64,000 bases of DNA, taken from Escherichia coli (GTDB lineage Bacteria; Pseudomonadota; Gammaproteobacteria; Enterobacterales; Enterobacteriaceae). How positions within the stretch are numbered: position 1 is the first letter of the stretch; each line of letters starts with the position of its first letter. The stretch is taken from assembly GCF_030384885.1 (NCBI RefSeq), contig NZ_CP128613.1, one strand, 5' to 3'. Of the stretch, positions 21,811 to 32,797 are shown in pieces. The position numbers were made by a program, and so were the translations under genes. The notes under the pieces are model-generated. The model saw only the letters and a program-made list of their open reading frames with translations. It was not told where the DNA came from and did no database searches.

Positions 21811-22449
21811 ATGCCCGGGCGCTTTGAACTAAAACCAACCCTGGAGAAAGTCTGGCACGCGCCGGACAATTTTCGCTTCATGGACCCGCTACCGCCGATG
21901 CATCGTCGGGGGATCATTATTGCCGCTATTGTATTGGTGGTCGGATTTCTACTCCCGTCTGATGATACGCCAAACGCGCCGGTGGTGACGCGTGAAGCAC
22001 AGTTAGATATTCAGTCGCAATCACAACCGCCGACAGAAGAACAGCTGCGGGCGCAATTAGTCACACCACAAAATGATCCTGATCAGGTGGCTCCGGTCGC
22101 TCCAGAACCGATACAGGAAGGCCAACCGGAAGAGCAGCCGCAAACCTCGCAAGTGCAACCTTTCCAGCCAGATAGCGGAATTGACAATCAATGGCGCTCT
22201 TACCGTGTCGAACCCGGTAAAACGATGGCGCAGCTGTTCCGCGACCACGGACTGCCCGCTACCGATGTCTATGCAATGGCGCAGGTAGAAGGCGCGGGTA
22301 AGCCGCTGAGTAATTTGCAAAACGGGCAGATGGTGAAAATCCGCCAGAATGCCAGCGGCGTGGTGACGGGCTTAACCATTGATACGGGGAATAATCAACA
22401 GGTCCTGTTTACCCGCCAGCCGGATGGGAGTTTTATTCGTGCGCGGTAG
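21811..22449 (+). CDS. ytfB: Cell-division protein YtfB (OapA-domain)
   Basis: Start set at [13 protein letters not shown] (212 aa); TM segment then Pro/Gln-rich linker; 3' end overlaps the convergent TetR gene. Confidence 0.88.
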
Positions 22450-23080
22450 ATGAAGGGTCAACCAAAAGCCAGCTAAGGATTGTCTCTTTGATGACCTTAC
22501 GCCTGGCTTCCAGTGCCTGCGGTGAAACCATACTGATGTGATAAACCAGGCCAAGCGTATGCTGGTTGATCAAATAATATCCTCCAAGAGCAGCAATATT
22601 AATATTCACCTGCAACGGGTCGATATCTGGCTTAAAAATATTGCGCCGTTTGCCTTCAGCTAATAATGACTCCATTAACTGTAAGTGTGCGTGGTTAATT
22701 TCTAAAAGGCGCTGTGATTTTGCATAATGCACCCCTTTACTCTGGTTTTCACTATGCACAATTTTTAAAAACCAGGGGTTAGCAATGTAATAATCCCAGG
22801 TGAAATCGATAATTTTCTCAATGGCTTTTTGTGGCGGAAGACCTGAGAAATCAAGGGATTTTTCTTTTTGCCGAATATCATTCCAGGTATATTCCAGCAC
22901 TTCGATAAATAAATTTTCTTTATTACCAAAGTGATGATAAACCGTCTGTTTACTGCACTCCGCGGCCTTGACGATATTATCGACTCTGGCCCCTTCGTAA
23001 CCATATTCGGCAAATTCATTAACCGCACATAACAACAGCTTTTCCTTCAGGCTTTGTACGTTGCTGGTATCAAGATACAT
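22433..23080 (-). CDS. TetR/AcrR-family transcriptional regulator
   Basis: N-terminal HTH ([28 protein letters not shown]) typical of TetR; ATG at 23080 preferred over the GTG at 23140 used by the ORF track; divergent from the downstream operon. Confidence 0.8.
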
Positions 23081-23202
23081 TCCGCTTCCCCACGTCTTCT
23101 TCGTGATGACTATCTTAACCCGATTTGTTAGAAGCTCCACTAAAATGGCTAAAAACTCGCAATTTCATCGGGTTATCAAATGCTCTGTGATCATTATCGC
23201 AT

Positions 23203-23224
23203 ATCAACCAACTAGATGGTTGAT
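23203..23224. promoter_or_regulatory. Candidate TetR operator (inverted repeat) in divergent promoter region
   Basis: atcaacca-actaga-tggttgat, 8-bp perfect arms, between the TetR gene and the SDR gene; inference. Confidence 0.35.
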
Positions 23225-23291: not shown

Positions 23292-24083
23292 ATGAAGTCA
23301 ACACGTCCTGTTGCTGTCATCACTGGAGCCGCACGTGGTATTGGAAAGGGCTGTGCACTGGAACTTGCGCGTGGCGGATTTAATCTGCTGATTAATGATC
23401 GTCCGGATGCCGACAGCGTAGAAAAATTACATGCCACACAACAAGAATGTCTGGCGGAAGGCGTGGAAGTGATTTGCTTCCCTGCTGATGTTGGCGATCT
23501 CTCCCTTCATGAAGAGATGCTCGACGCGGCGCAAAACCAGTGGGGACGTCTGGACTGTCTACTCAACAACGCAGGCATTTCAGTGAAAAAACGCGGTGAC
23601 CTCCTCGACCTCGAACCAGACAGCTTCGACCAAAACATTGCCATTAACACCCGTGCGCCGTTCTTCCTTGCTCAGGCATTCAGTAAGCGATTACTGGCAC
23701 AGCCGAAACCGGAAGCAGAACTGCCGCACCGCTCGATTATTTTTGTCAGTTCCATAAACGCCATCATGCTGGCGATGAATCGCGGCGAATATACCATTGC
23801 CAAAACTGCCGTCTCCGCCGCAGCTCGTCTGTTTGCCGCTCGCCTTTGCAATGAACAAATTGGCGTTTATGAAGTGCGCCCTGGCCTAATCAAAACCGAT
23901 ATGACCATTCCGGCAACGGCTTATTACGACGAACTGATTGCTAAGGGGTTAGTGCCGTGGGGACGTTGGGGTTATCCGGCTGATATTGCCTCAACGGTCC
24001 GCGCGATGGCGGAAGGCAAACTGATTTACACCTGTGGTCAGGCGGTCGCCATCGACGGCGGCTTAAGTATGCCGCGCTTCTGA
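23292..24083 (+). CDS. Short-chain dehydrogenase/reductase (SDR)
   Basis: TGAARGIG cofactor motif, NNAG, and Ser...Y-x3-K catalytic motif (YTIAK) read directly. Confidence 0.85.
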   Translation: MKSTRPVAVITGAARGIGKGCALELARGGFNLLINDRPDADSVEKLHATQQECLAEGVEVICFPADVGDLSLHEEMLDAAQNQWGRLDCLLNNAGISVKKRGDLLDLEPDSFDQNIAINTRAPFFLAQAFSKRLLAQPKPEAELPHRSIIFVSSINAIMLAMNRGEYTIAKTAVSAAARLFAARLCNEQIGVYEVRPGLIKTDMTIPATAYYDELIAKGLVPWGRWGYPADIASTVRAMAEGKLIYTCGQAVAIDGGLSMPRF

Positions 24084-24092
24084 GGCTGAATC

Positions 24093-24935
24093 ATGAGAGA
24101 TCTGTTACAACGCCCGGATTTATTCAGTATCAATACTGCGACACTGGGCTATAAAACGCCGCTACCTGCCATTATTGATGCCTGCGCCGCACGCGGTATT
24201 GGCGCGATTGCCCCCTGGCGCAGGGAGTTACAGGGTGAAGATCTCCAGCAAATCGCCCGCCAGCTTGCTGCCAGTAACATGAGCGTTTCCGGTTTGTGTC
24301 GTAGCACCTATTACACCGCGCCGACGCTGACGGAACGCAAACTGGCGATTGATGATAACCGCCGGGCGCTGGACGACGCCGCTGTACTGAACGCCGCCTG
24401 TTATATGCAGGTGGTTGGCGGTCTGCCAATGGGAACAAAAGATCTGTACGAAGCGCGGGAACAAGTGAAACAAGGGATTCGCCAGTTGCTGCCACATTCG
24501 AAAGATGTCGGCGTGCCAATTGCGCTGGAGCCGCTGCACCCGATGACAGCTGCCGATCGCTCTTGCCTGTGCACGTTACGTCAGGCGCTGGACTGGTGTG
24601 ATGAACTCGATCCCGATGGGGAGTTTGGCCTCGGCGTGGCGGTGGATGTTTATCACGTCTGGTGGGACCCGGATCTCGCCAGTCAGATCCTGCGTGCCGG
24701 AAAACGCATCCTCGCGTTTCATGTTTCCGACTGGCTGGTGCCAACCACCGATTTAGTCAATGACCGGGGAATGCCGGGAGATGGCGTAATCAATATTCCG
24801 TCTATTCGTCGCCAGGTAGAAAATGCCGGATTTAACGGTGCTGTGGAACTGGAAATTTTCTCACCGTACTGGTGGCAGCAAGATATTAACAGCACGTTGG
24901 ATATTAGCGTCGATCGCATCGCGCATTATTGCTAA
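24093..24935 (+). CDS. Sugar-phosphate isomerase/epimerase-like (xylose-isomerase-type TIM barrel) protein
   Basis: 280-aa ORF; family assignment by overall resemblance only (…AFHVSDW…), no database check. Confidence 0.55.
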   Translation: MRDLLQRPDLFSINTATLGYKTPLPAIIDACAARGIGAIAPWRRELQGEDLQQIARQLAASNMSVSGLCRSTYYTAPTLTERKLAIDDNRRALDDAAVLNAACYMQVVGGLPMGTKDLYEAREQVKQGIRQLLPHSKDVGVPIALEPLHPMTAADRSCLCTLRQALDWCDELDPDGEFGLGVAVDVYHVWWDPDLASQILRAGKRILAFHVSDWLVPTTDLVNDRGMPGDGVINIPSIRRQVENAGFNGAVELEIFSPYWWQQDINSTLDISVDRIAHYC

Positions 24936-24938
24936 GGA

Positions 24939-25721
24939 ATGATCATGAGTGACCAACCCGTTCTGTTCAGCAGAGCGGCGGCTTCCTGCCGCCTGACATT
25001 GAACCGTGAAGATAAATGTCATGCTATTAATGAAGAAATGATCGAATCTCTCGACCATTATTTAAATGAAATTGAAAACGACACCACATTACGATTAGTC
25101 GAATTAACGGCAACCGGCGATAAATTCTTTTGTGCAGGCGGCGATATTAAATCGTGGTCAGCCTATTCGCCATTAGATATGGGCAGAAAATGGATTAAAC
25201 GCGGCAATGACGTTTTTAATCGCCTGCGCAATTTACCTCAATTAACGGTTGCGAATCTCAACGGTCATACCATCGGCGGTGGTATTGAACTTGCCTTGTG
25301 CTGCGATATTCGTATTGCTCGCCCCGGCGCGAAATTCTCTAATCCGGAAGTAATGCTCGGCATGGTGCCTGGCTGGATGGGCATTGAACGCGTGCTTAAT
25401 CAGGTCGGTCCGGTGGTCGGTCGCCAGATGCTGATGCTGGGTAAACGCCTGACGGCGCAGGAAGCTCAGGCAGCGAATTTAATTGATGAAGTGGTAGAAA
25501 AAGAACAGGTGGAAAGCTGGATGGCGAATCAGTTAGCGCAGCTGGAAAAATGCGGTCCGGTGGCGCTCGCACATATCAAGCAACTGATTCTGGCTCTAGA
25601 AAATAAACATGCTGATTACCCGCACCAGTTACTGGCTGGATTAATGTCCGCCACTCAGGATTGCCAGCAGGCGACGCGCGCATTTGCCGAAAAAAGTAGC
25701 GTGAGCTTCCAAAATCAATAA
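24939..25721 (+). CDS. Enoyl-CoA hydratase/isomerase (crotonase family)
   Basis: Crotonase signatures FFCAGGDIKSW and GHTIGGGIELALCCDIRIA. Confidence 0.85.
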   Translation: MIMSDQPVLFSRAAASCRLTLNREDKCHAINEEMIESLDHYLNEIENDTTLRLVELTATGDKFFCAGGDIKSWSAYSPLDMGRKWIKRGNDVFNRLRNLPQLTVANLNGHTIGGGIELALCCDIRIARPGAKFSNPEVMLGMVPGWMGIERVLNQVGPVVGRQMLMLGKRLTAQEAQAANLIDEVVEKEQVESWMANQLAQLEKCGPVALAHIKQLILALENKHADYPHQLLAGLMSATQDCQQATRAFAEKSSVSFQNQ

Positions 25722-25730
25722 GGAAATTGT

Positions 25731-27272
25731 ATGCGTAAGATAACAACCGCCGAGACACTGGCGGCGCAAATTCAGGACGGTGCAACCATTGCCATTAGCG
25801 GTAATGGCGGCGGCATGGTGGAAGCGGACCATATTCTGGCTGCTATTGAAGCGCGTTTCCTGCAAACCGGACACCCGCGCGATCTGACATTAATCCACTC
25901 GCTGGGCATTGGCGATCGCGACTGCAAAGGCACTAACCGCTTCGCTCATGCAGATATGCTCAAACGCATCATTGCCGGACATTTTACCTGGTCGCCCAAG
26001 ATGCAGGATCTGGTGAAAAACAATGCTATTGAAGCCTACTGCTTCCCTGGTGGCGTAATTCAGGCACTGCTGCGGGAGATCGGTGCCGGACGTCCAGGGC
26101 TTTTTACCCACGTTGGACTGGGATCGTTTGTTGATCCGCGCAACGGCGGCGGTAAGTCGAACGCCAGCACCACTGAGGATCTGGTAGAACTGATTGAAAT
26201 CGACGGTGAAACCAAACTTCGTTATCGCCCTTTCAAAGTGGATTACGCGATTTTGCGTGGCACTTATGCCGATCCTCGAGGCAACGTCAGCCTTGAAGAA
26301 GAGGCGATTGATATGGATAGCTATTCCATGGCGCTGGCAGCACACAACAGCGGTGGCAAAGTGTTCGTACAGGTGCGCGATGTGCTGGAAGCTGGTGCCA
26401 TTGAACCACGCCGGGTCAAATTACCGGGCATTCTGGTTGATGGCATCGTTGAACACCGCGAACAACCGCAAACATATCTTGGCGGTTACGACCTGACCAT
26501 CAGCGGTCAGCACCGCCGTTTAAGTTCTAACGACGCTATTGAACTGGTTACTCATCCGGTGCGCCGCCTGATTGCCCGTCGGGCAGCACGCGAACTGGTG
26601 GCTGGCGCTTCAACCAACTTTGGCTTTGGCATTCCCGGCGGCATTCCTGGGGTTGCACTGCGCGAAGGCGTGCCTTATCAAAGTTTATGGCTGAGCGTCG
26701 AGCAAGGCGTGCATAACGGTATGATGCTGGATGATGCTCTGTTCGGCTGCGCCCGTAACGCCGATGCCATTATTCCATCACTCGATCAATTCGAATTCTA
26801 CAGTGGCGGAGGGATCGATATCACCTTCCTCGGCATGGGAGAGATGGATCAGCATGGTAACGTCAACGTCTCCCATCTCAATGGCAATCTCATTGGCCCC
26901 GGCGGATTTCTCGAAATTGCGCAAAACGCCCGTAAAGTGGTGTTCTGTGGCACGTTCGACGCCAAAGGTAGCAAGATTGATGTAACACCAGATGGCTTGC
27001 ATATCGCCCAGTCAGGTCAAATCCCTAAACTGGTTACCCAAGTGGAAAAAATCACTTTTAGCGCCGCCTACGCACAGCAAAGCGGTCAGGAAGTGTTGTA
27101 TATCACTGAACGTGCAGTATTCCAATTAACAGCAGAAGGCGTTGAATTAATTGAAATCGCACCAGGTGTGGAGATTGAGCGCGACATTCTGCCATATATG
27201 GCTTTCCGTCCAATTATCAATCAGCCACGCCTGATGGAAAGTAGCCTGTTTACGCCGATGGAGGATGCATGA
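25731..27272 (+). CDS. Family-I CoA-transferase (YdiF/acetate CoA-transferase-like, fused A/B subunits)
   Basis: 513-aa ORF; long stretches resemble E. coli YdiF as I recall it (…VGLGSFVDPRNGGGK…); 3' end overlaps the next gene (ATGA). Confidence 0.8.
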   Translation: MRKITTAETLAAQIQDGATIAISGNGGGMVEADHILAAIEARFLQTGHPRDLTLIHSLGIGDRDCKGTNRFAHADMLKRIIAGHFTWSPKMQDLVKNNAIEAYCFPGGVIQALLREIGAGRPGLFTHVGLGSFVDPRNGGGKSNASTTEDLVELIEIDGETKLRYRPFKVDYAILRGTYADPRGNVSLEEEAIDMDSYSMALAAHNSGGKVFVQVRDVLEAGAIEPRRVKLPGILVDGIVEHREQPQTYLGGYDLTISGQHRRLSSNDAIELVTHPVRRLIARRAARELVAGASTNFGFGIPGGIPGVALREGVPYQSLWLSVEQGVHNGMMLDDALFGCARNADAIIPSLDQFEFYSGGGIDITFLGMGEMDQHGNVNVSHLNGNLIGPGGFLEIAQNARKVVFCGTFDAKGSKIDVTPDGLHIAQSGQIPKLVTQVEKITFSAAYAQQSGQEVLYITERAVFQLTAEGVELIEIAPGVEIERDILPYMAFRPIINQPRLMESSLFTPMEDA

Positions 27273-29350
27273 GTCAGCTTGATGACACCCTCCTTGATGC
27301 GCTGACGCATGTCACTTTCCCGAAGGGTTTTGCACAGGCAGAACCCGCATGGGTTGTCACGGTAGACGGTGTTGATTACCCACTCTGGCAAACAGATGCC
27401 CTGGTAGTCGGCAGTGGTGCAGCCGGGCTGCGTGCAGCTGTGGAACTTAAACGCCGCCAGCAAAATGTGTTGATCGCCACTGCCGGGTTATATATGGGGA
27501 CGTCGGCATGTTCTGGTTCCGATAAACAGACACTGTTTACCGCCGCTACCGCGGGCAATGGCGACAACTTCACCAAACTGGCAGAGGCACTGGCGAGCGG
27601 TGGAGCGATGGATCACGACACCGCTTATGTCGAAGCGGTAGGTTCTCTGCACACTCTTGGCGGGTTGCAATATCTTGGTCTGGAATTACCGGAAGATCGC
27701 TATGGCGCGATTCTTCGTTATCAAACCGACCATGACGAAGCCGGGCGTGCAACCTCGTGTGGGCCGCGTACCTCAAGGTTAATGGTGAAAGTGCTGTTGG
27801 AAGAAGTGCAGCGCCTCGCCATTCCAGTGTTGACCAGTGCAACAGTGATTAAACTGCTGCATCAGCGTGACGAAAACGGCGAAGACTGCGTGGCGGGGGC
27901 AATCCTCGCGACCGGTCATCGCGCCCATAACCCATGGGGGCTGGCAATTGTGACTGCGCCCAATGTGGTGCTGGCAACAGGAGGGCCTGGCGAGCTTTAT
28001 CGAGACAGTGTGTACCCACATAAATGCTTCGGCTCGCTGGGGCTGGCGCTGGAAGAAGGTCTGACGCTAACCAATCTGACCGAAAGCCAGTTTGGTATTG
28101 GCACGCCACGCAACACCTTTCCGTGGAATTTGTCCGGCACCTATGTACAGGTGATCCCATATATCTATTCCGTAGATGCTGAGGGCAACGAGTATAACTT
28201 CCTCACGGATTACTATCGAACTACCCAGGAACTGGCTTCAAACATCTTCCGTAAAGGCTATCAGTGGCCGTTTCACGCCACACGAGTGATGGATTTTGGC
28301 TCCAGCTTGTTAGATATGGCAGTAGCGCAAGAGCAGCAATCAGGGCGTCAGGTATTTATGGATTTCAATCGCAATCCTGAACCTGTGCCGGGTGACATGC
28401 CGTTCTCATTAGATCGACTGGACGACGACGTTCGCGCGTATCTGGAAAATAACGACGCTCTGGCACCATCGCCCATCGAACGACTGCAACGAATGAATCC
28501 GCTGTCTATCTCGCTGTATAAGATGCACGGTTACGATCTCACCACGCAGCCATTGCAGTTTGCCATGAATAATCAGCATATGAATGGCGGCATTGAAGTG
28601 GATATCTGGGGGCAAACCTCCCTGCCCGGCTGTTTCGCCGTGGGGGAAGTTGCTGGCACACACGGCGTTACCCGACCTGGCGGTGCGGCGCTGAATGCCG
28701 GACAGGTATTTGCCGTGCGACTGGCACGTTTTATTGGTTGCACACAAAAGCGGTCCGTTGAGGATGATATCGCGCAGCTGGTAGCCTCACCTCTGCATAC
28801 AATCAGAGAAGTTATCGCTCAGGCACTGGCAAACGAGAACGGAATGACGCTGGCAACGGTGAAAGAAAAAATCCAGGCGCGAATGTCTGATTACGCGGGA
28901 TTTATTTGCCATGCTGATAAAGTTCGTCACGCCGCCCGTGACGCCATGCTGTTAAATGAATTTGCGCAGCAACATGGTCTAACTATCAACCACGCCGGTG
29001 AAATTGCCGAGCTATTTATGTGGCGGCATATGGCATTAACATCCGCTGCGGTGTTAAGCCAGCTATCACATTATATTGATGCTGGCGGTGGTAGTCGTGG
29101 AGCACGGATGATTATTGATCCACAAGGAGAATATCTTCCACAAACTCGTCGCGGCGCAATCGAAGATTGGCGTTTTCGCTCTGAACAAGCTGAAGATAAA
29201 AATCACAGACTAACTCTCTCCTTTTCACAAGGTTTATTTATTAATGAAATTAAGTTCTTGAGAAACTTACCGCATATTAAAGGTATTTACTTTGAGAAGA
29301 ATTGGCCTGATTTTCTTAACGGAACAATTTATCAGACACGGCATGAATAA
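27269..29350 (+). CDS. FAD-dependent oxidoreductase (fumarate reductase/succinate dehydrogenase/L-aspartate oxidase-like flavoprotein)
   Basis: Dinucleotide-binding motif VVGSGAAGLRAA, HMNGG and GEVAGTHGVTRPGGAALN motifs of the FAD_binding_2 family; 693 aa with an AT-rich C-terminal tail. Confidence 0.75.
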   Translation: MSQLDDTLLDALTHVTFPKGFAQAEPAWVVTVDGVDYPLWQTDALVVGSGAAGLRAAVELKRRQQNVLIATAGLYMGTSACSGSDKQTLFTAATAGNGDNFTKLAEALASGGAMDHDTAYVEAVGSLHTLGGLQYLGLELPEDRYGAILRYQTDHDEAGRATSCGPRTSRLMVKVLLEEVQRLAIPVLTSATVIKLLHQRDENGEDCVAGAILATGHRAHNPWGLAIVTAPNVVLATGGPGELYRDSVYPHKCFGSLGLALEEGLTLTNLTESQFGIGTPRNTFPWNLSGTYVQVIPYIYSVDAEGNEYNFLTDYYRTTQELASNIFRKGYQWPFHATRVMDFGSSLLDMAVAQEQQSGRQVFMDFNRNPEPVPGDMPFSLDRLDDDVRAYLENNDALAPSPIERLQRMNPLSISLYKMHGYDLTTQPLQFAMNNQHMNGGIEVDIWGQTSLPGCFAVGEVAGTHGVTRPGGAALNAGQVFAVRLARFIGCTQKRSVEDDIAQLVASPLHTIREVIAQALANENGMTLATVKEKIQARMSDYAGFICHADKVRHAARDAMLLNEFAQQHGLTINHAGEIAELFMWRHMALTSAAVLSQLSHYIDAGGGSRGARMIIDPQGEYLPQTRRGAIEDWRFRSEQAEDKNHRLTLSFSQGLFINEIKFLRNLPHIKGIYFEKNWPDFLNGTIYQTRHE

Positions 29351-29370
29351 TATTGCAAAGGTTAATCACT

Positions 29371-29847
29371 ATGCGAAATATAATCAGATCTATTAATTCA
29401 TTGCTTTCCACGTTGAACATTACCATTTTGGCAATTATTGTGATGTGCGTTACATGGCAAGTAGTAGCACGATTTATCTTTAAAAGCCCCAGCATTTTTA
29501 CAGATGAACTTAGTCGTTTACTATTTATTTGTCTTGGACTTTTTGGTGGTGCTTATACTGCCGGACAAAACCGACATCTGGCCATTGATCTTCTGCCAAT
29601 GATGCTAAAAGGAAAATCCCGACGTTATTTATTCTTATGTATTCAGGCCATTGTTATTCTTTTTGCCTCTATCATTATGGTTTATGGTGGCGGGTTATTA
29701 ACACTGGACACATTTGATTCAGGGCAAACTTCTCCGGCTTTAGGCTGGCAGATGGGATATATTTACATGAGCATTCCAATAAGTGGCATCCTTATTATTA
29801 TATACACCATAGATACAGTTTTAACCGAACTTAAACAACCACTCTAA
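29371..29847 (+). CDS. TRAP transporter small permease (DctQ-like)
   Basis: About 158 aa with 4 predicted TM helices; ATG at 29371 with upstream aaagg preferred over the TTG at 29353; directly upstream of DctM. Confidence 0.75.
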   Translation: MRNIIRSINSLLSTLNITILAIIVMCVTWQVVARFIFKSPSIFTDELSRLLFICLGLFGGAYTAGQNRHLAIDLLPMMLKGKSRRYLFLCIQAIVILFASIIMVYGGGLLTLDTFDSGQTSPALGWQMGYIYMSIPISGILIIIYTIDTVLTELKQPL

Positions 29848-29869
29848 AATAAGTAGGGATGGAGAAAAC

Positions 29870-31171
29870 ATGGATTACTGGTTACCGATCATTGTGTTAT
29901 TTGGTTCTTTCTTTTTTATGTTGGCATTAGGTGTTCCTATTGTCTATGCTATTGGTTTATCAACACTGGCATCAATTACTACACAACTCGATTTCAACTC
30001 AGCATTGAGTGTGGTTTCACAAAAGTTAGCCTCCGGGTTAGATAGTTTTACGTTGTTGGCAATCCCATTTTTTATCTTGTCTGGCAACATTATGAATCAT
30101 GGAGGAATAGCGCGACGATTAATCAACTTTGCCCGTATTCTCGGCGGTCGTCTGCCAGGCTCACTTGCTCACTGTAATATTCTTGCCAATATGCTGTTCG
30201 GGGCAATTTCTGGTTCAGCTGTTGCTTCGGCGGCTGCGATGGGCGGCGTCATGCATCCACAGCAGGTTAAAGAGGGTTACGACCCGGCATTCAGTACCGC
30301 TGTTAACGTTGCCTCTGCACCGACAGGTTTACTTATTCCACCCAGTAATACGTTAATTGTCTTTTCACTGGTCAGTGGTGGTACTTCTATTGCCGCACTG
30401 TTCCTGGCAGGATATGTCCCGGGAATTTTATTGGGCCTGGCGCTGATGACTGTGGCTGGTATTATCGCGGTACGCCGGGGTTATCCAAAACCAGAACGTC
30501 CGACTTTGCGCCAGGCTGGAGTGGCAATATGGATGGCGATCCCCAGTATTTTCCTGATTGTATTAATTATGGGTGGTGTACTAAGCGGTATTTTTACCCC
30601 GACAGAAGCATCTGCAATTGCGGTAATTTATACCCTTTTCCTTGCACTGGTTCTTTATCGTGAAATATCAGTTAAAGATTTACCTAAGATATTTCTGGAG
30701 TCCGTCATTACCACTGCAATTGTCTTGTTGTTAATTGGTTCTTCAATGGGAATGTCATGGGCAATGTCAAACGCTGACGTTCCCTTCCTGATTCTCGATT
30801 TGCTTAACACTATTTCTGATAATCCAATAATAATCCTGCTTATTATCAATATTATTCTGTTGATTATCGGCACATTTATGGATATGACACCGGCAGTACT
30901 GATTTTTACGCCGATATTTTTACCCGTTGTCACCGAACTGGGCATGGACCCGATTCACTTTGGTATTGTCATGGTACTGAACATGTGTATCGGTATTTGT
31001 ACTCCGCCTGTAGGCAGTGTGTTATTTGTCGGTTGTAGTGTATCTAAATTACCGATTAATAAAATTATCAAACCTATGCTGCCCTTCTATGCCGTGATGG
31101 TATTGGTGCTGGCTATGGTGACCTATATTCCGCAAATCAGTATGGCATTGCCAAGAGCACTGGGCTACTGA
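29870..31171 (+). CDS. TRAP transporter large permease (DctM-like)
   Basis: 433-aa polytopic membrane protein; size and hydrophobicity pattern typical of DctM. Confidence 0.85.
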   Translation: MDYWLPIIVLFGSFFFMLALGVPIVYAIGLSTLASITTQLDFNSALSVVSQKLASGLDSFTLLAIPFFILSGNIMNHGGIARRLINFARILGGRLPGSLAHCNILANMLFGAISGSAVASAAAMGGVMHPQQVKEGYDPAFSTAVNVASAPTGLLIPPSNTLIVFSLVSGGTSIAALFLAGYVPGILLGLALMTVAGIIAVRRGYPKPERPTLRQAGVAIWMAIPSIFLIVLIMGGVLSGIFTPTEASAIAVIYTLFLALVLYREISVKDLPKIFLESVITTAIVLLLIGSSMGMSWAMSNADVPFLILDLLNTISDNPIIILLIINIILLIIGTFMDMTPAVLIFTPIFLPVVTELGMDPIHFGIVMVLNMCIGICTPPVGSVLFVGCSVSKLPINKIIKPMLPFYAVMVLVLAMVTYIPQISMALPRALGY

Positions 31172-31223
31172 TGCGCATTCACTGGCGGCTCCTGCCGCCA
31201 TATTTATTAGAAAAGGAACATCT

Positions 31224-32195
31224 ATGAAAATAAAAGTATCCGCTGGCATTATCGGTGCTGTTCTTATGTTATCTGCAGGCCAGTCCTGGGCAGTAACATT
31301 AAAACTTAGCCATAATCAGGATAAATCTCATCCTGTTCATAAAGCGATGGAGTTCTTTGCGAAAAAGAGCAAAGAGTACTCTAACGGTGATATTACTATT
31401 CGTATTTATCCAAATGGAACATTGGGTACTCAACGAGAAACAATGGAGCTGATTCGTTCTGGTGCTATTCCGCTGGTAAAAACCAATGCGGCGGAGATGG
31501 AAGCCTTCGAGAGTTCGTATAAAATATTTAGCCTGCCTTATTTGTTCCGCGATCGTGATCATTATTATCAGGTCATGCAAGGCGATATCGGAAGGAAAAT
31601 CCTCGACTCAACGAAAAACAAAGGTTATTTCGGTCTGACTTTCTATGATGGAGGCGCCCGCAGCTTCTACGGCAATAAACCGGTGCTGAAACCAGACGAT
31701 CTCAAAGGAATGAAAGTTCGTGTCCAGCCAAGCCCAGGGGCAGTTGAGATGATCAAAGTCATGGGAGGTAACCCAACACCGCTGGATTATGGAGAGTTGT
31801 ACACAGCATTGCAGCAAGGTGTGGTTGATATGGCGGAAAACAGTGTGATGGCGCTGACCACCATGCGCCACGGTGAAGTAGCAAAATCCTTCAGCCTTGA
31901 CGAACACACTATGGTTCCTGATGTGGTTCTAATGAGCAATGCTTCGTTTGATAAGCTTAGCCCGGAAAATCAGGCAGCTATATTAAAAGCAGCTAAAGAA
32001 TCAATGAGCTACATGAAAGACTTGTGGAGCGAGGAAGAGAAAAAAGAATTCGCTAAACTGGATCAAATGGGCGTGAAAGTCTACAAGGTTGATAAAGCAC
32101 CGTTTATCGAGAAAGTGCAGCCGATGTACGCAGCCTTTGCTAAGGAAAACCCTGCTCTCGCCCCAATGCTAACTGATATTCAGGCGACTAAGTAA
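31224..32195 (+). CDS. TRAP transporter substrate-binding protein (DctP-like), periplasmic
   Basis: 323 aa, signal peptide MKIKVSAGIIGAVLMLSAGQSWA; DctP-size soluble protein adjacent to DctQM. Confidence 0.8.
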   Translation: MKIKVSAGIIGAVLMLSAGQSWAVTLKLSHNQDKSHPVHKAMEFFAKKSKEYSNGDITIRIYPNGTLGTQRETMELIRSGAIPLVKTNAAEMEAFESSYKIFSLPYLFRDRDHYYQVMQGDIGRKILDSTKNKGYFGLTFYDGGARSFYGNKPVLKPDDLKGMKVRVQPSPGAVEMIKVMGGNPTPLDYGELYTALQQGVVDMAENSVMALTTMRHGEVAKSFSLDEHTMVPDVVLMSNASFDKLSPENQAAILKAAKESMSYMKDLWSEEEKKEFAKLDQMGVKVYKVDKAPFIEKVQPMYAAFAKENPALAPMLTDIQATK

Positions 32196-32252
32196 TTATC
32201 TTAATAGGGCTGCTTATTGTGGCCCTTAGCAATATCTACAAGCGCTCGCTAT

Positions 32253-32288
32253 AAAAGCAAAACGCCGACCAATGGTCGGCGTTTTTAC
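32253..32288. terminator. Bidirectional intrinsic terminator between TRAP operon and rplI
   Basis: aaaagcaaa-acgccgacc-aatg-gtcggcgt-ttttacg: hairpin flanked by A-run and T-run. Confidence 0.75.
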
Positions 32289-32306
32289 GTCTCGTTGAAT
32301 AACGAA

Positions 32307-32768
<462 letters not shown>

Positions 32769-32797
32769 TCAAAGTCGTATTAATGGACCGTGACCGA

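Follow-up and report, generated by a model that had tools for sequence, protein, structure and literature searches.

The window analysed here, 64,000 nucleotides (nt) of the Escherichia coli contig NZ_CP128613.1 (RefSeq assembly GCF_030384885.1), carries a block of nine genes between ytfB and rplI: a divergent gene for a TetR-family regulator, five enzyme genes, and dctQ, dctM and dctP, which encode a tripartite ATP-independent periplasmic (TRAP) transporter. The enzyme genes (positions 23292-29350) share one orientation and encode a short-chain dehydrogenase/reductase (SDR), a xylose-isomerase-like TIM barrel, a crotonase, a YdiF-type coenzyme A (CoA)-transferase and a flavoprotein of 693 amino acids (aa). 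They are separated by 9, 3-9 and 9 nt, and an overlap of 4 nt joins the CoA-transferase gene to that of the flavoprotein. A preliminary description of this DNA had recognized the combination, which is real, but had closed it at 29350; this right limit is too narrow, as the unit runs on through the transporter genes to about 32285, ~3 kb further to the right. Given the co-orientation, the gaps of at most 9 nt and the overlap, together with a palindrome conserved in the divergent promoter region and a terminator downstream of dctP, the reading of the enzyme genes and the transporter as one regulated catabolic operon is well supported. The same gene order occurs in Klebsiella, in Salmonella and in a Rhodocyclaceae metagenome-assembled genome (MAG), which rules out a chance juxtaposition. 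The assignments of the enzymes, the binding protein and the regulator are all predictions made from sequence.

The regulator gene (22433-23080, minus strand, longest open reading frame to 23140; RefSeq WP_001353506.1) encodes a TetR/AcrR-family protein, with NCBIfam TetR matches across the N-terminal helix-turn-helix and orthologues that contain Pfam TetR_N and TetR_C_29, and is the intact counterpart of the K-12 ytfA pseudogene. Its position upstream of the enzyme genes agrees with the TetR link drawn in the preliminary description. The divergent region of 211 bp includes a perfect inverted repeat with an 8-bp stem, ATCAACCA-ACTAGA-TGGTTGAT (23203-23224), which is the best-conserved block among E. 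coli, K. oxytoca and S. enterica and a candidate TetR operator; ATCAACCAACTAGATGGTTGAT is the putative TetR target sequence. A related palindrome, TCAACCATCTAGTTGA, lies upstream of one of the homologous clusters described below (L082). Directly upstream of the candidate operator is a CRP-like site, TGTGATCATTATCGCA (23186-23201, plus strand), with one mismatch to TGTGA-N6-TCACA. Its GTGA-N6-TCACA core is found at the same place in Klebsiella and Salmonella, and three such sites occur in the window against 1.9 expected, which is not above chance; its reading as a CRP site is suggestive only. Within the 52-nt gap between dctM and dctP, a GC-rich hairpin (TGGCGGC-TCCT-GCCGCCA, 31183-31200, plus strand) may serve as a partial terminator, in mRNA stability or in setting the ratio of the binding protein to the membrane components. 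The operon ends at a predicted strong bidirectional terminator, AAAACGCCGACC-ATT-GGTCGGCGTTTT (32259-32285), with a 12-bp stem that includes seven GC pairs; it lies between the dctP stop (32195) and the convergent rplI (32307-32756), by which it is shared. Two long open reading frames, 32217-32783 (plus) and 24172-24744 (minus), are opposite-strand shadows of rplI and of the TIM-barrel gene, respectively, and not genes.

The first enzyme (23292-24083, plus strand, 263 aa) belongs to the NF009386/PRK12745 family of SDR oxidoreductases (NCBIfam, 420.6 bits against a cut-off of 250). It displays the features of a classical SDR, namely TGAARGIG (aa 11-18, nt 23322-23345), the serine of SSINA (153-157) and YTIAK (aa 167-171). 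Its homologues in the PDB, 4da9 and 4one, are both uncharacterised, and against the KduD model it scores 117 bits, the cut-off being 339. The second enzyme (24093-24935, plus strand, 280 aa) is a xylose-isomerase-like TIM barrel of the SMc04130 family, whose orthologues contain the Pfam domain AP_endonuc_2. It matches PDB 3qc0 and 3ju2 (S. meliloti SMc04130) at an E value of about 1e-85 and 49-50% identity, and 7vpf at 41%; all three are titled 'putative sugar isomerase'. They also lead the fold comparison, with template modelling (TM) scores of 0.86-0.87, followed by IolI, ketose 3-epimerases, YcjR and QuiC1, and the identity to characterised members is only 14-19%. As close matches, the PDB sequence and fold searches gave 'putative sugar isomerase' entries only, and thus no characterised homologue. 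Four residues, Glu146, Asp185, His210 and Glu252, do not vary across the family alignment, in keeping with the metal-dependent class of these enzymes, and by their position they may be read as the metal ligands.

The crotonase-family protein (24945-25721, alternative start 24939, plus strand, 258 aa; best NCBIfam E value 2.4e-44) is predicted to be an enoyl-CoA hydratase/dehydratase. It matches 72 NCBIfam enoyl-CoA hydratase families, all below the equivalog cut-offs, and thus is not assigned to a substrate. The sequence includes FFCAGGDIKSW (aa 63-73) and GGGIELALCCD (aa 113-123), and the orthologues carry Pfam ECH_1/ECH_2. In rat enoyl-CoA hydratase, E144 and E164 form the catalytic glutamate pair typical of canonical hydratases; both glutamates are present here, in GGGIE (aa 117) and SNPE (aa 137), and the protein falls into this class. 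The CoA-transferase (25731-27272, plus strand, 513 aa) is of family I (YdiF/Pct-type), its match to YdiF in the PDB (2ahu) having an E value of 6e-116 and its identity to K-12 YdiF being 39% over 508 aa. Glu324, within SVEQGVHNG, aligns with Glu333 of YdiF, presumably the catalytic residue that forms the enzyme-CoA thioester. In K-12 its closest E. coli paralogue, ydiF, lies directly after the quinate/shikimate dehydrogenase gene ydiB and aroD and before the acyl-CoA dehydrogenase (ACAD) gene ydiO (ydiN-ydiB-aroD-ydiF-ydiO, L171 2513-8348), a juxtaposition of hydroaromatic and CoA genes that resembles the logic of the present cluster. Among the operon proteins the NCBIfam scan found no Ashwell-pathway enzyme. 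As the preliminary description had stated, a thiolase is missing: none is annotated within 9 kb on either side, and with no ACAD in the operon or within this distance either, a complete beta-oxidation cycle is not encoded. The SDR, crotonase and flavoprotein motifs quoted in that description are all present in the translations of the genes to which they were ascribed, and profile, PDB and fold searches bear out its calls of an SDR, a crotonase, a YdiF-like CoA-transferase, a TIM-barrel enzyme and an Frd/Sdh-family protein.

The flavoprotein (27269-29350, plus strand, 693 aa) belongs to an uncharacterised clade of the Sdh/Frd/NadB superfamily. Pfam FAD_binding_2 covers residues 43-475 (E value 1.8e-25), including GSGAAGL (aa 48-54) and HMNGG (aa 437-441). 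The AlphaFold model (predicted local distance difference test score, pLDDT, 92.4) has an extra C-terminal β domain at residues about 613-693, and its best structural matches are SdhA/FrdA (TM 0.65/0.78, 15-19% identity). The active-site mapping proposed in the preliminary description was carried out as an hhalign profile alignment to E. coli FrdA. The carboxylate pair His355/Arg390 of FrdA is kept as His437/Arg469, but all fumarate-specific catalytic residues are lacking: His232 is replaced by Gly276, Thr234 by Gly278 and Arg287 by Ser345/Ser346, and Glu245 has no counterpart. At the position of FrdA His44, which carries the covalent FAD, there is no histidine. The protein thus stands outside the functional Frd/Sdh flavoproteins, and that this clade would be unable to work like fumarate reductase is well supported. 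Its NCBIfam scores all fall well short of the cut-offs; the NadB model TIGR00551, for example, gives 96.7 bits against a cut-off of 452.75, in a match split over two stretches. A canonical fumarate reductase and an L-aspartate oxidase are both ruled out by the missing catalytic residues, and a periplasmic or respiratory flavocytochrome by the absence of a visible signal peptide and of a haem or FMN_bind domain.

An alignment of 42 family members, 33-79% identical to the E. coli protein, shows a capping domain in which N269, Q274, W286, N287, S289, Y292, Q294, K329, Y331, W333, S345, S346 and D349 are invariant. Such a polar and aromatic cap would be expected for a polyol-carboxylate ligand, and the invariance of the active-site columns over these sequences makes one chemistry likely throughout the family. 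This is large (417 clusters at 50% identity with E≤1e-30), with members in Enterocloster, Halanaerobium, Victivallis, Treponema, Coriobacterium, Succinatimonas and Promethearchaeum. The Asgard archaeon Promethearchaeum syntrophicum has a full-length member (AFDB50 A0A5B9DEN3, 34% identity, TM 0.88). No relative among those listed is named for a specific function, the AFDB50 search having given generic names only, and NCBIfam lacks a specific model of the flavoprotein, of the TIM barrel and of the DUF993 proteins found in related clusters.

The TRAP transporter is composed of a small permease, DctQ (29371-29847), a large permease, DctM (29870-31171), and a solute-binding protein, DctP (31224-32195; WP_000695879.1), all encoded on the plus strand. 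DctM scores 459.8 bits against TIGR00786 (cut-off 268) and DctP 246 bits against TIGR00787 (cut-off 175), which places the system among the DctPQM transporters; DctQ is identified by its RefSeq annotation and a weak YiaM-family match. The best PDB matches of DctP are 4ovr, 4x8r, 4n15, 4n8y, 4n91, 4p1l and 4mhf. Of these, 4X8R binds glucuronate and 4N8Y galacturonate (PMC11668362), and 4N91 binds glucuronate and 4MHF glucuronate/galacturonate (PMC7660916). In the hexuronate binder STM3169 the uronate is held by Arg150, Arg170 and Asn210, together with Asn35, Gln36, Glu74 and Asp237 (PMC7660916). Mapped at a constant offset of -4, Arg146, Arg166, Asn206, Asn31, Gln32 and Asp233 of DctP match six of these seven residues, and the two arginines and Asn206 also line up with 4x8r and 4n8y, which bind glucuronate and galacturonate, respectively. 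By its PDB matches DctP is closest to hexuronate binders, and hexuronates are its putative ligand class. In other strains, such as HH97, a major facilitator superfamily (MFS) transporter of the anion:cation symporter (ACS) family replaces the TRAP stretch (29353-32195) at the same place. This protein (L166 11144-12421) scores 315 bits against TIGR00893, the D-galactonate-transporter subfamily, and 80 bits against the aromatic-acid family. Since two unrelated uptake systems, both of the sugar-acid type, serve the same enzymes, this exchange is the strongest pointer to the class of the substrate.

The five enzyme genes are present in 3152 of the 5426 complete E. coli genomes, mostly at 90-95% identity. 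Only 1480 E. coli genomes have the TRAP genes, and about 1670 of the enzyme-bearing genomes have the ACS-family MFS gene instead, as do K. oxytoca and S. enterica, where the operon occupies the same position between ytfB and rplI. In K-12 MG1655 (L168) the whole operon is missing, and the interval contains only the ytfA pseudogene, a remnant of the TetR gene, and yjfZ (DUF2686). The GC content is 43% in the TRAP genes and 52% in the enzyme genes. With respect to the Rhodocyclaceae MAG (L002), which has the whole cluster including TRAP, the transporter proteins are 70-86% identical and the enzymes 40-62%. Because of this lower GC content and closer identity, the TRAP module looks like a later import. 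The TIM-barrel protein is truncated to 207 aa in many E. coli and Shigella records, the flavoprotein gene of strain HH97 is frameshifted (L166 8978-11051), and in some strains the overlapping CoA-transferase and flavoprotein genes are fused into one encoding 1043-1078 aa. Frameshift, truncation and fusion are signs of decay or rearrangement in some strains.

Homologous clusters were collected in two scans, one of genomes anchored on the TIM barrel (80 loci, analysed by ORF clustering) and one of metagenomes anchored on the flavoprotein, which yielded a separate set of loci. Over the 80 loci the TIM barrel is the constant element and the partner genes vary. The commonest arrangement (type A), which includes the neighbourhood of S. 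meliloti SMc04130, consists of Gfo/Idh/MocA, DUF993, an enolase-superfamily protein and the TIM barrel, with a tripartite tricarboxylate (TTT), ATP-binding cassette (ABC) or MFS transporter. Type B comprises TetR, CoA-transferase, ACAD, SDR, DUF993, TIM barrel and sometimes crotonase; sister clusters of Pseudomonas, Caballeronia and Rhizobiales contain CoA-transferase, ACAD, SDR, TIM barrel and sometimes crotonase, without the flavoprotein. Type C (L082) has TetR, SDR, Gfo/Idh/MocA, TIM barrel, MFS and flavoprotein without a CoA enzyme, type D is the E. coli arrangement, and type E (L046) combines CoA-transferase, crotonase, TRAP, MaoC, ACAD, the electron transfer flavoprotein (ETF) EtfAB, TIM barrel and flavoprotein. 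In type A variants the enolase-superfamily protein stands where the CoA-transferase and crotonase would be, and for this reason may share with them a role in alpha-proton abstraction and dehydration. DUF993 is encoded at 73 of the 74 loci of the main TIM-barrel group, none of which has the flavoprotein, and is absent from all flavoprotein-bearing loci (six from the TIM-barrel scan and 78 from metagenomes). The gene that alternates with the flavoprotein across loci is DUF993, not ACAD. The cluster of TetR, Gfo/Idh/MocA, DUF993, enolase-superfamily protein, SMc04130-type TIM barrel and TTT, ABC or MFS transporter (L038 6218-10810 and 73 other loci, L003 and L010-L086) is widespread in soil Proteobacteria and apparently uncharacterised, with DUF993 almost inseparable from the TIM barrel; a DUF993 profile found only the uncharacterised 4dnh in the PDB.

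The neighbourhoods of the flavoprotein change with its distance from the E. coli protein. At 53-58% identity, some homologues (L082, L105, L114, L123, L124) are accompanied by SDR, Gfo/Idh/MocA, TIM barrel and a transporter, and by no CoA enzyme. Others in the same range belong to clusters with a LacI regulator and a carbohydrate ABC transporter. These clusters also encode a pair of GMC oxidoreductases, an aldehyde dehydrogenase, a Gfo-type dehydrogenase (levoglucosan-dehydrogenase-like in one locus, 308 bits), CoA-transferase and crotonase, and the flavoprotein gene is followed directly by that of a KdgK-like kinase. Flavoproteins at 36-41% identity have as neighbours an NF009386 SDR (332 bits), an old yellow enzyme (OYE) or OYE-GltD protein, a PfkB protein resembling 2-keto-3-deoxygluconate (KDG) kinase, and an Eda-like aldolase. 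At L148 the order is TRAP, flavoprotein, IclR/KdgR-like regulator, kinase and aldolase. This recurrence of KDG-kinase-like genes, Eda-like genes and the same SDR family places the flavoprotein in a sugar-acid context. Among distant relatives (L006, L144, L154, L159, L160, L165) the flavoprotein is either fused to OYE, as at L006 (9001-12255), where it is joined to an Oxidored_FMN domain in 1084 aa, or comes after an OYE protein of 450 aa or an OYE-GltD protein of 880 aa. These arrangements hint that in anaerobes a dedicated electron path links the flavoprotein to NAD(P)H. The flavoprotein and a PRK12745-type SDR, often joined by the TIM barrel, therefore form the conserved core, amid sugar-acid catabolic genes, and the CoA-transferase and crotonase are a recurrent optional add-on.

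It is well supported that the operon handles an imported carboxylate of the sugar-acid type and includes a module for CoA transfer and (de)hydration that does without a thiolase, and the general idea of the preliminary description, a hydroxy- or unsaturated carboxylate processed as its CoA ester, proved correct in this respect. Our preferred reading, which we hold tentatively and at somewhat less than even weight, is that of a TetR-repressed, possibly CRP-activated, eight-gene catabolic unit for a hexuronate-class sugar acid, in which CoA-assisted dehydration would be combined with keto-sugar chemistry. Direct sequence support exists for uptake and for the proposed last step; the substrate, the order of steps, the enzyme reactions in between and the KDG-like nature of the product are what we infer. 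The acid would be imported by the TRAP transporter or, in about half of the operon-bearing E. coli, by the anion:cation-symporter-type MFS protein, and the YdiF/Pct-type transferase would form its CoA thioester from a donor acyl-CoA without spending ATP. The thioester would acidify the alpha-proton, so that the crotonase, with both catalytic glutamates, could remove water across the alpha and beta carbons beside the carboxyl, a step that would amount to a CoA-dependent version of an acid-sugar dehydratase. Neither a thiolase nor a ligase would be needed, because the CoA would be handed on to a further molecule of substrate. The SDR and the metal-dependent TIM barrel may perform KduD/KduI-like keto-sugar chemistry, one interconverting hydroxyl and carbonyl groups while the neighbouring carbon is isomerised, epimerised or beta-eliminated; the nearest characterised structures to the TIM barrel do act beside a sugar carbonyl. 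The product would probably be a 2-keto-3-deoxy sugar acid (KDG-like) that enters the Entner-Doudoroff pathway through kinase and aldolase genes located elsewhere.

The flavoprotein may be inferred to carry out a two-electron reaction on the free acid, at its carboxylate end, in which His437 and Arg469 would hold the carboxylate and the protein's own polar and aromatic cap would stand in for the fumarate-specific residues. As to the direction of this step, the OYE partners seen in anaerobes speak for reduction, and the lack of any partner in E. coli or in the homologues from soil and freshwater speaks for oxidation or a redox-neutral role. That the flavoprotein, with a cap that looks suited to a sugar, is the first recognisable member of a new flavoenzyme family, with an undescribed reaction for the superfamily on uronate-type sugar acids and within a CoA-dependent sugar-acid pathway, is a proposal with a small but realistic chance of being right. 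On this proposal, candidate reactions would be those of a 3-keto-uronate 4,5-dehydrogenase/reductase analogous to KstD, or a flavin-dependent, redox-neutral 4,5-elimination, and possible substrates would be uronates outside the reach of UxaC, for example L-iduronate, mannuronate/guluronate or non-reducing uronides.

Several observations weigh against the sugar-acid reading. The uronate-to-KDG and aldonate-to-KDG schemes that were drafted each work on paper without the flavoprotein, and as the simplest uronate-to-KDG schemes do not need it, its step is left unexplained; nor does the operon encode an electron donor or acceptor for it. For glucuronate and galacturonate, E. coli is already equipped with the UxaC/UxuAB/UxaAB route. 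DctP is only about 40% identical to hexuronate binders, and at one of the seven STM3169 ligand positions, by the same offset mapping, it has Gln70 instead of glutamate, with a glutamate two residues on. The KdgK-like and Eda-like matches among the relatives lie below the NCBIfam cut-offs, and the ACAD-containing sister clusters look more like fatty-acid-style beta-oxidation. Searches of the full-text literature, PDB, NCBIfam and AFDB50 found no publication on the operon and no characterised homologue.

These sister clusters, in which CoA-transferase, ACAD, SDR and TIM barrel, often with a GMC oxidase and an aldehyde dehydrogenase upstream, occur without the flavoprotein, would suit an oxidation of a non-sugar carboxylate that resembles beta-oxidation. 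The flavoprotein would then desaturate the alpha-beta bond of the free acid, the transferase would convert the product into the enoyl-CoA, the crotonase would hydrate it and the SDR oxidise the 3-hydroxyacyl-CoA, and the 3-ketoacyl-CoA would pass to the TIM barrel or to a housekeeping thiolase. The canonical hydratase site of the crotonase, the annotation of the SDR in a 3-ketoacyl reductase family and the SdhA/FrdA fold of the flavoprotein agree with such a route, which is close to what the preliminary description had proposed when it let an Frd-type flavoprotein replace ACAD and ETF. However, ACAD, EtfAB and the flavoprotein coexist in L046, many flavoprotein clusters lack CoA enzymes altogether, and the partner that alternates with the flavoprotein is DUF993. 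The flavoprotein is also devoid of the proton-shuttle arginine and of the His/Thr/Glu that succinate dehydrogenases use for C-C desaturation, and its relatives have KdgK- and Eda-like neighbours. With both transporters of sugar-acid likeness as well, this explanation is unlikely. The earlier interpretation as a whole is partly supported, its claim of a flavoprotein in place of ACAD and ETF being weak, with the flavoprotein-free ACAD clusters in its favour.

The same enzymes could be run in the reductive direction, with the transferase activating a beta-hydroxy acid prepared by the SDR and TIM barrel, and the crotonase dehydrating it; the enoate then released would be reduced by the flavoprotein as an anaerobic electron sink. 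This is the logic of CaiB/CaiD/CaiA and of the Pct-based acrylate pathway, and YdiF is Pct-like. In known enzymes that combine OYE and FAD_binding_2, the OYE part passes NAD(P)H electrons to the enoate-reducing FAD domain, and the fusion or adjacency of distant flavoprotein relatives to OYE or OYE-GltD, like the frequency of the family in strict anaerobes, fits this pattern. To our knowledge, however, soluble enoate, fumarate and urocanate reductases keep the catalytic arginine, which the flavoprotein lacks. Neither the E. coli operon nor the homologous soil and freshwater metagenome loci, which also carry GMC oxidoreductases, encode an OYE, Fe-S or ETF partner, and the CRP-like site and the kinase and aldolase neighbours point to carbon catabolism rather than respiration, so a reductive route is improbable. 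Still less probable is a carbocyclic polyhydroxy acid of the quinate/shikimate class as the substrate, for which the SDR would be a hydroaromatic dehydrogenase, the TIM barrel a dehydratase as in dehydroshikimate dehydratases, the flavoprotein a reductase of the ring C=C bond and the CoA module a means of further ring dehydration. The TIM-barrel fold matches do include IolI and the QuiC1 dehydroshikimate dehydratase fusion, a pyranuronate-type pocket might accept a cyclohexane carboxylate, ydiF adjoins ydiB-aroD in K-12, and the MFS protein of L082 scores slightly better against the aromatic-acid symporter family than against the galactonate family. The E. coli MFS protein, by contrast, falls into the sugar-acid subfamily by 315 bits to 80, KDG-kinase-like and KDPG-aldolase-like neighbours misfit a carbocyclic product, and no dehydroquinase or shikimate-pathway-type gene was found among the clusters examined.

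Read as a sugar-acid operon, the system shares features with several known ones. Like the carnitine pathway of E. coli (CaiB/CaiD/CaiA) and the Pct acrylate pathway of Clostridium propionicum, it would recycle CoA by a transferase, use a crotonase-type dehydratase on a 3-hydroxyacyl-CoA and have a flavoprotein at the alpha-beta position, with neither thiolase nor ligase. However, its transferase is of family I (YdiF/Pct-like) and CaiB of family III, its flavoprotein has the Sdh/Frd fold instead of that of ACAD and no ETF, and it adds an SDR, a TIM barrel and sugar-acid-type transporters. With the routes from hexuronates to KDG (UxaC/UxuAB/UxaAB; KduI/KduD; KdgK/Eda) it has in common the type of uptake protein, the KDG-kinase- and Eda-like neighbours of its relatives and the logic of an SDR and an isomerase; its candidate isomerase is a TIM barrel and not a cupin, and the CoA esters and the flavoprotein have no counterpart there. 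The pairing of an NAD-dependent dehydrogenase with a TIM barrel that acts beside the new carbonyl recalls YcjS/YcjR of E. coli, LGDH/LgdB of levoglucosan degradation and IolG/IolI, and the sister clusters have Gfo/Idh/MocA partners with levoglucosan-dehydrogenase-like scores. Unlike these systems, the operon uses an SDR in place of Gfo/Idh/MocA, and its substrate would carry a carboxylate. With the Sdh/Frd flavoprotein subunits and L-aspartate oxidase the flavoprotein shares a four-domain fold, a GSGAAGL of the non-covalent type and the HxxGG and RxGG carboxylate pair; the low identity (15-19%), the absence of the covalent-FAD histidine and of equivalents of H232, T234, E245 and R287, the extra C-terminal β domain and the lack of an Fe-S partner gene set it apart.

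All parts of the operon come from known superfamilies, and a substrate-inducible catabolic operon is an ordinary kind of unit; the gene combination, the flavoprotein clade, the TIM-barrel family and DUF993 are each without a characterised member. The operon occupies a fixed chromosomal site in over half of the complete E. coli genomes and in relatives from Klebsiella and Salmonella, and it has probably gone unstudied because K-12 has only a pseudogene scar there. If the preferred reading is true, most E. coli, Klebsiella oxytoca and some Salmonella would have a CoA-dependent sugar-acid pathway that has been lost from K-12. Gut Enterobacteriaceae would then possess a hitherto unrecognised route for a sugar acid from the host or the diet, which would bear on their nutrient niches and on colonisation, and the flavoprotein with its SDR would offer the first functional handle on a family that many anaerobes have, among them gut Clostridia and an Asgard archaeon.

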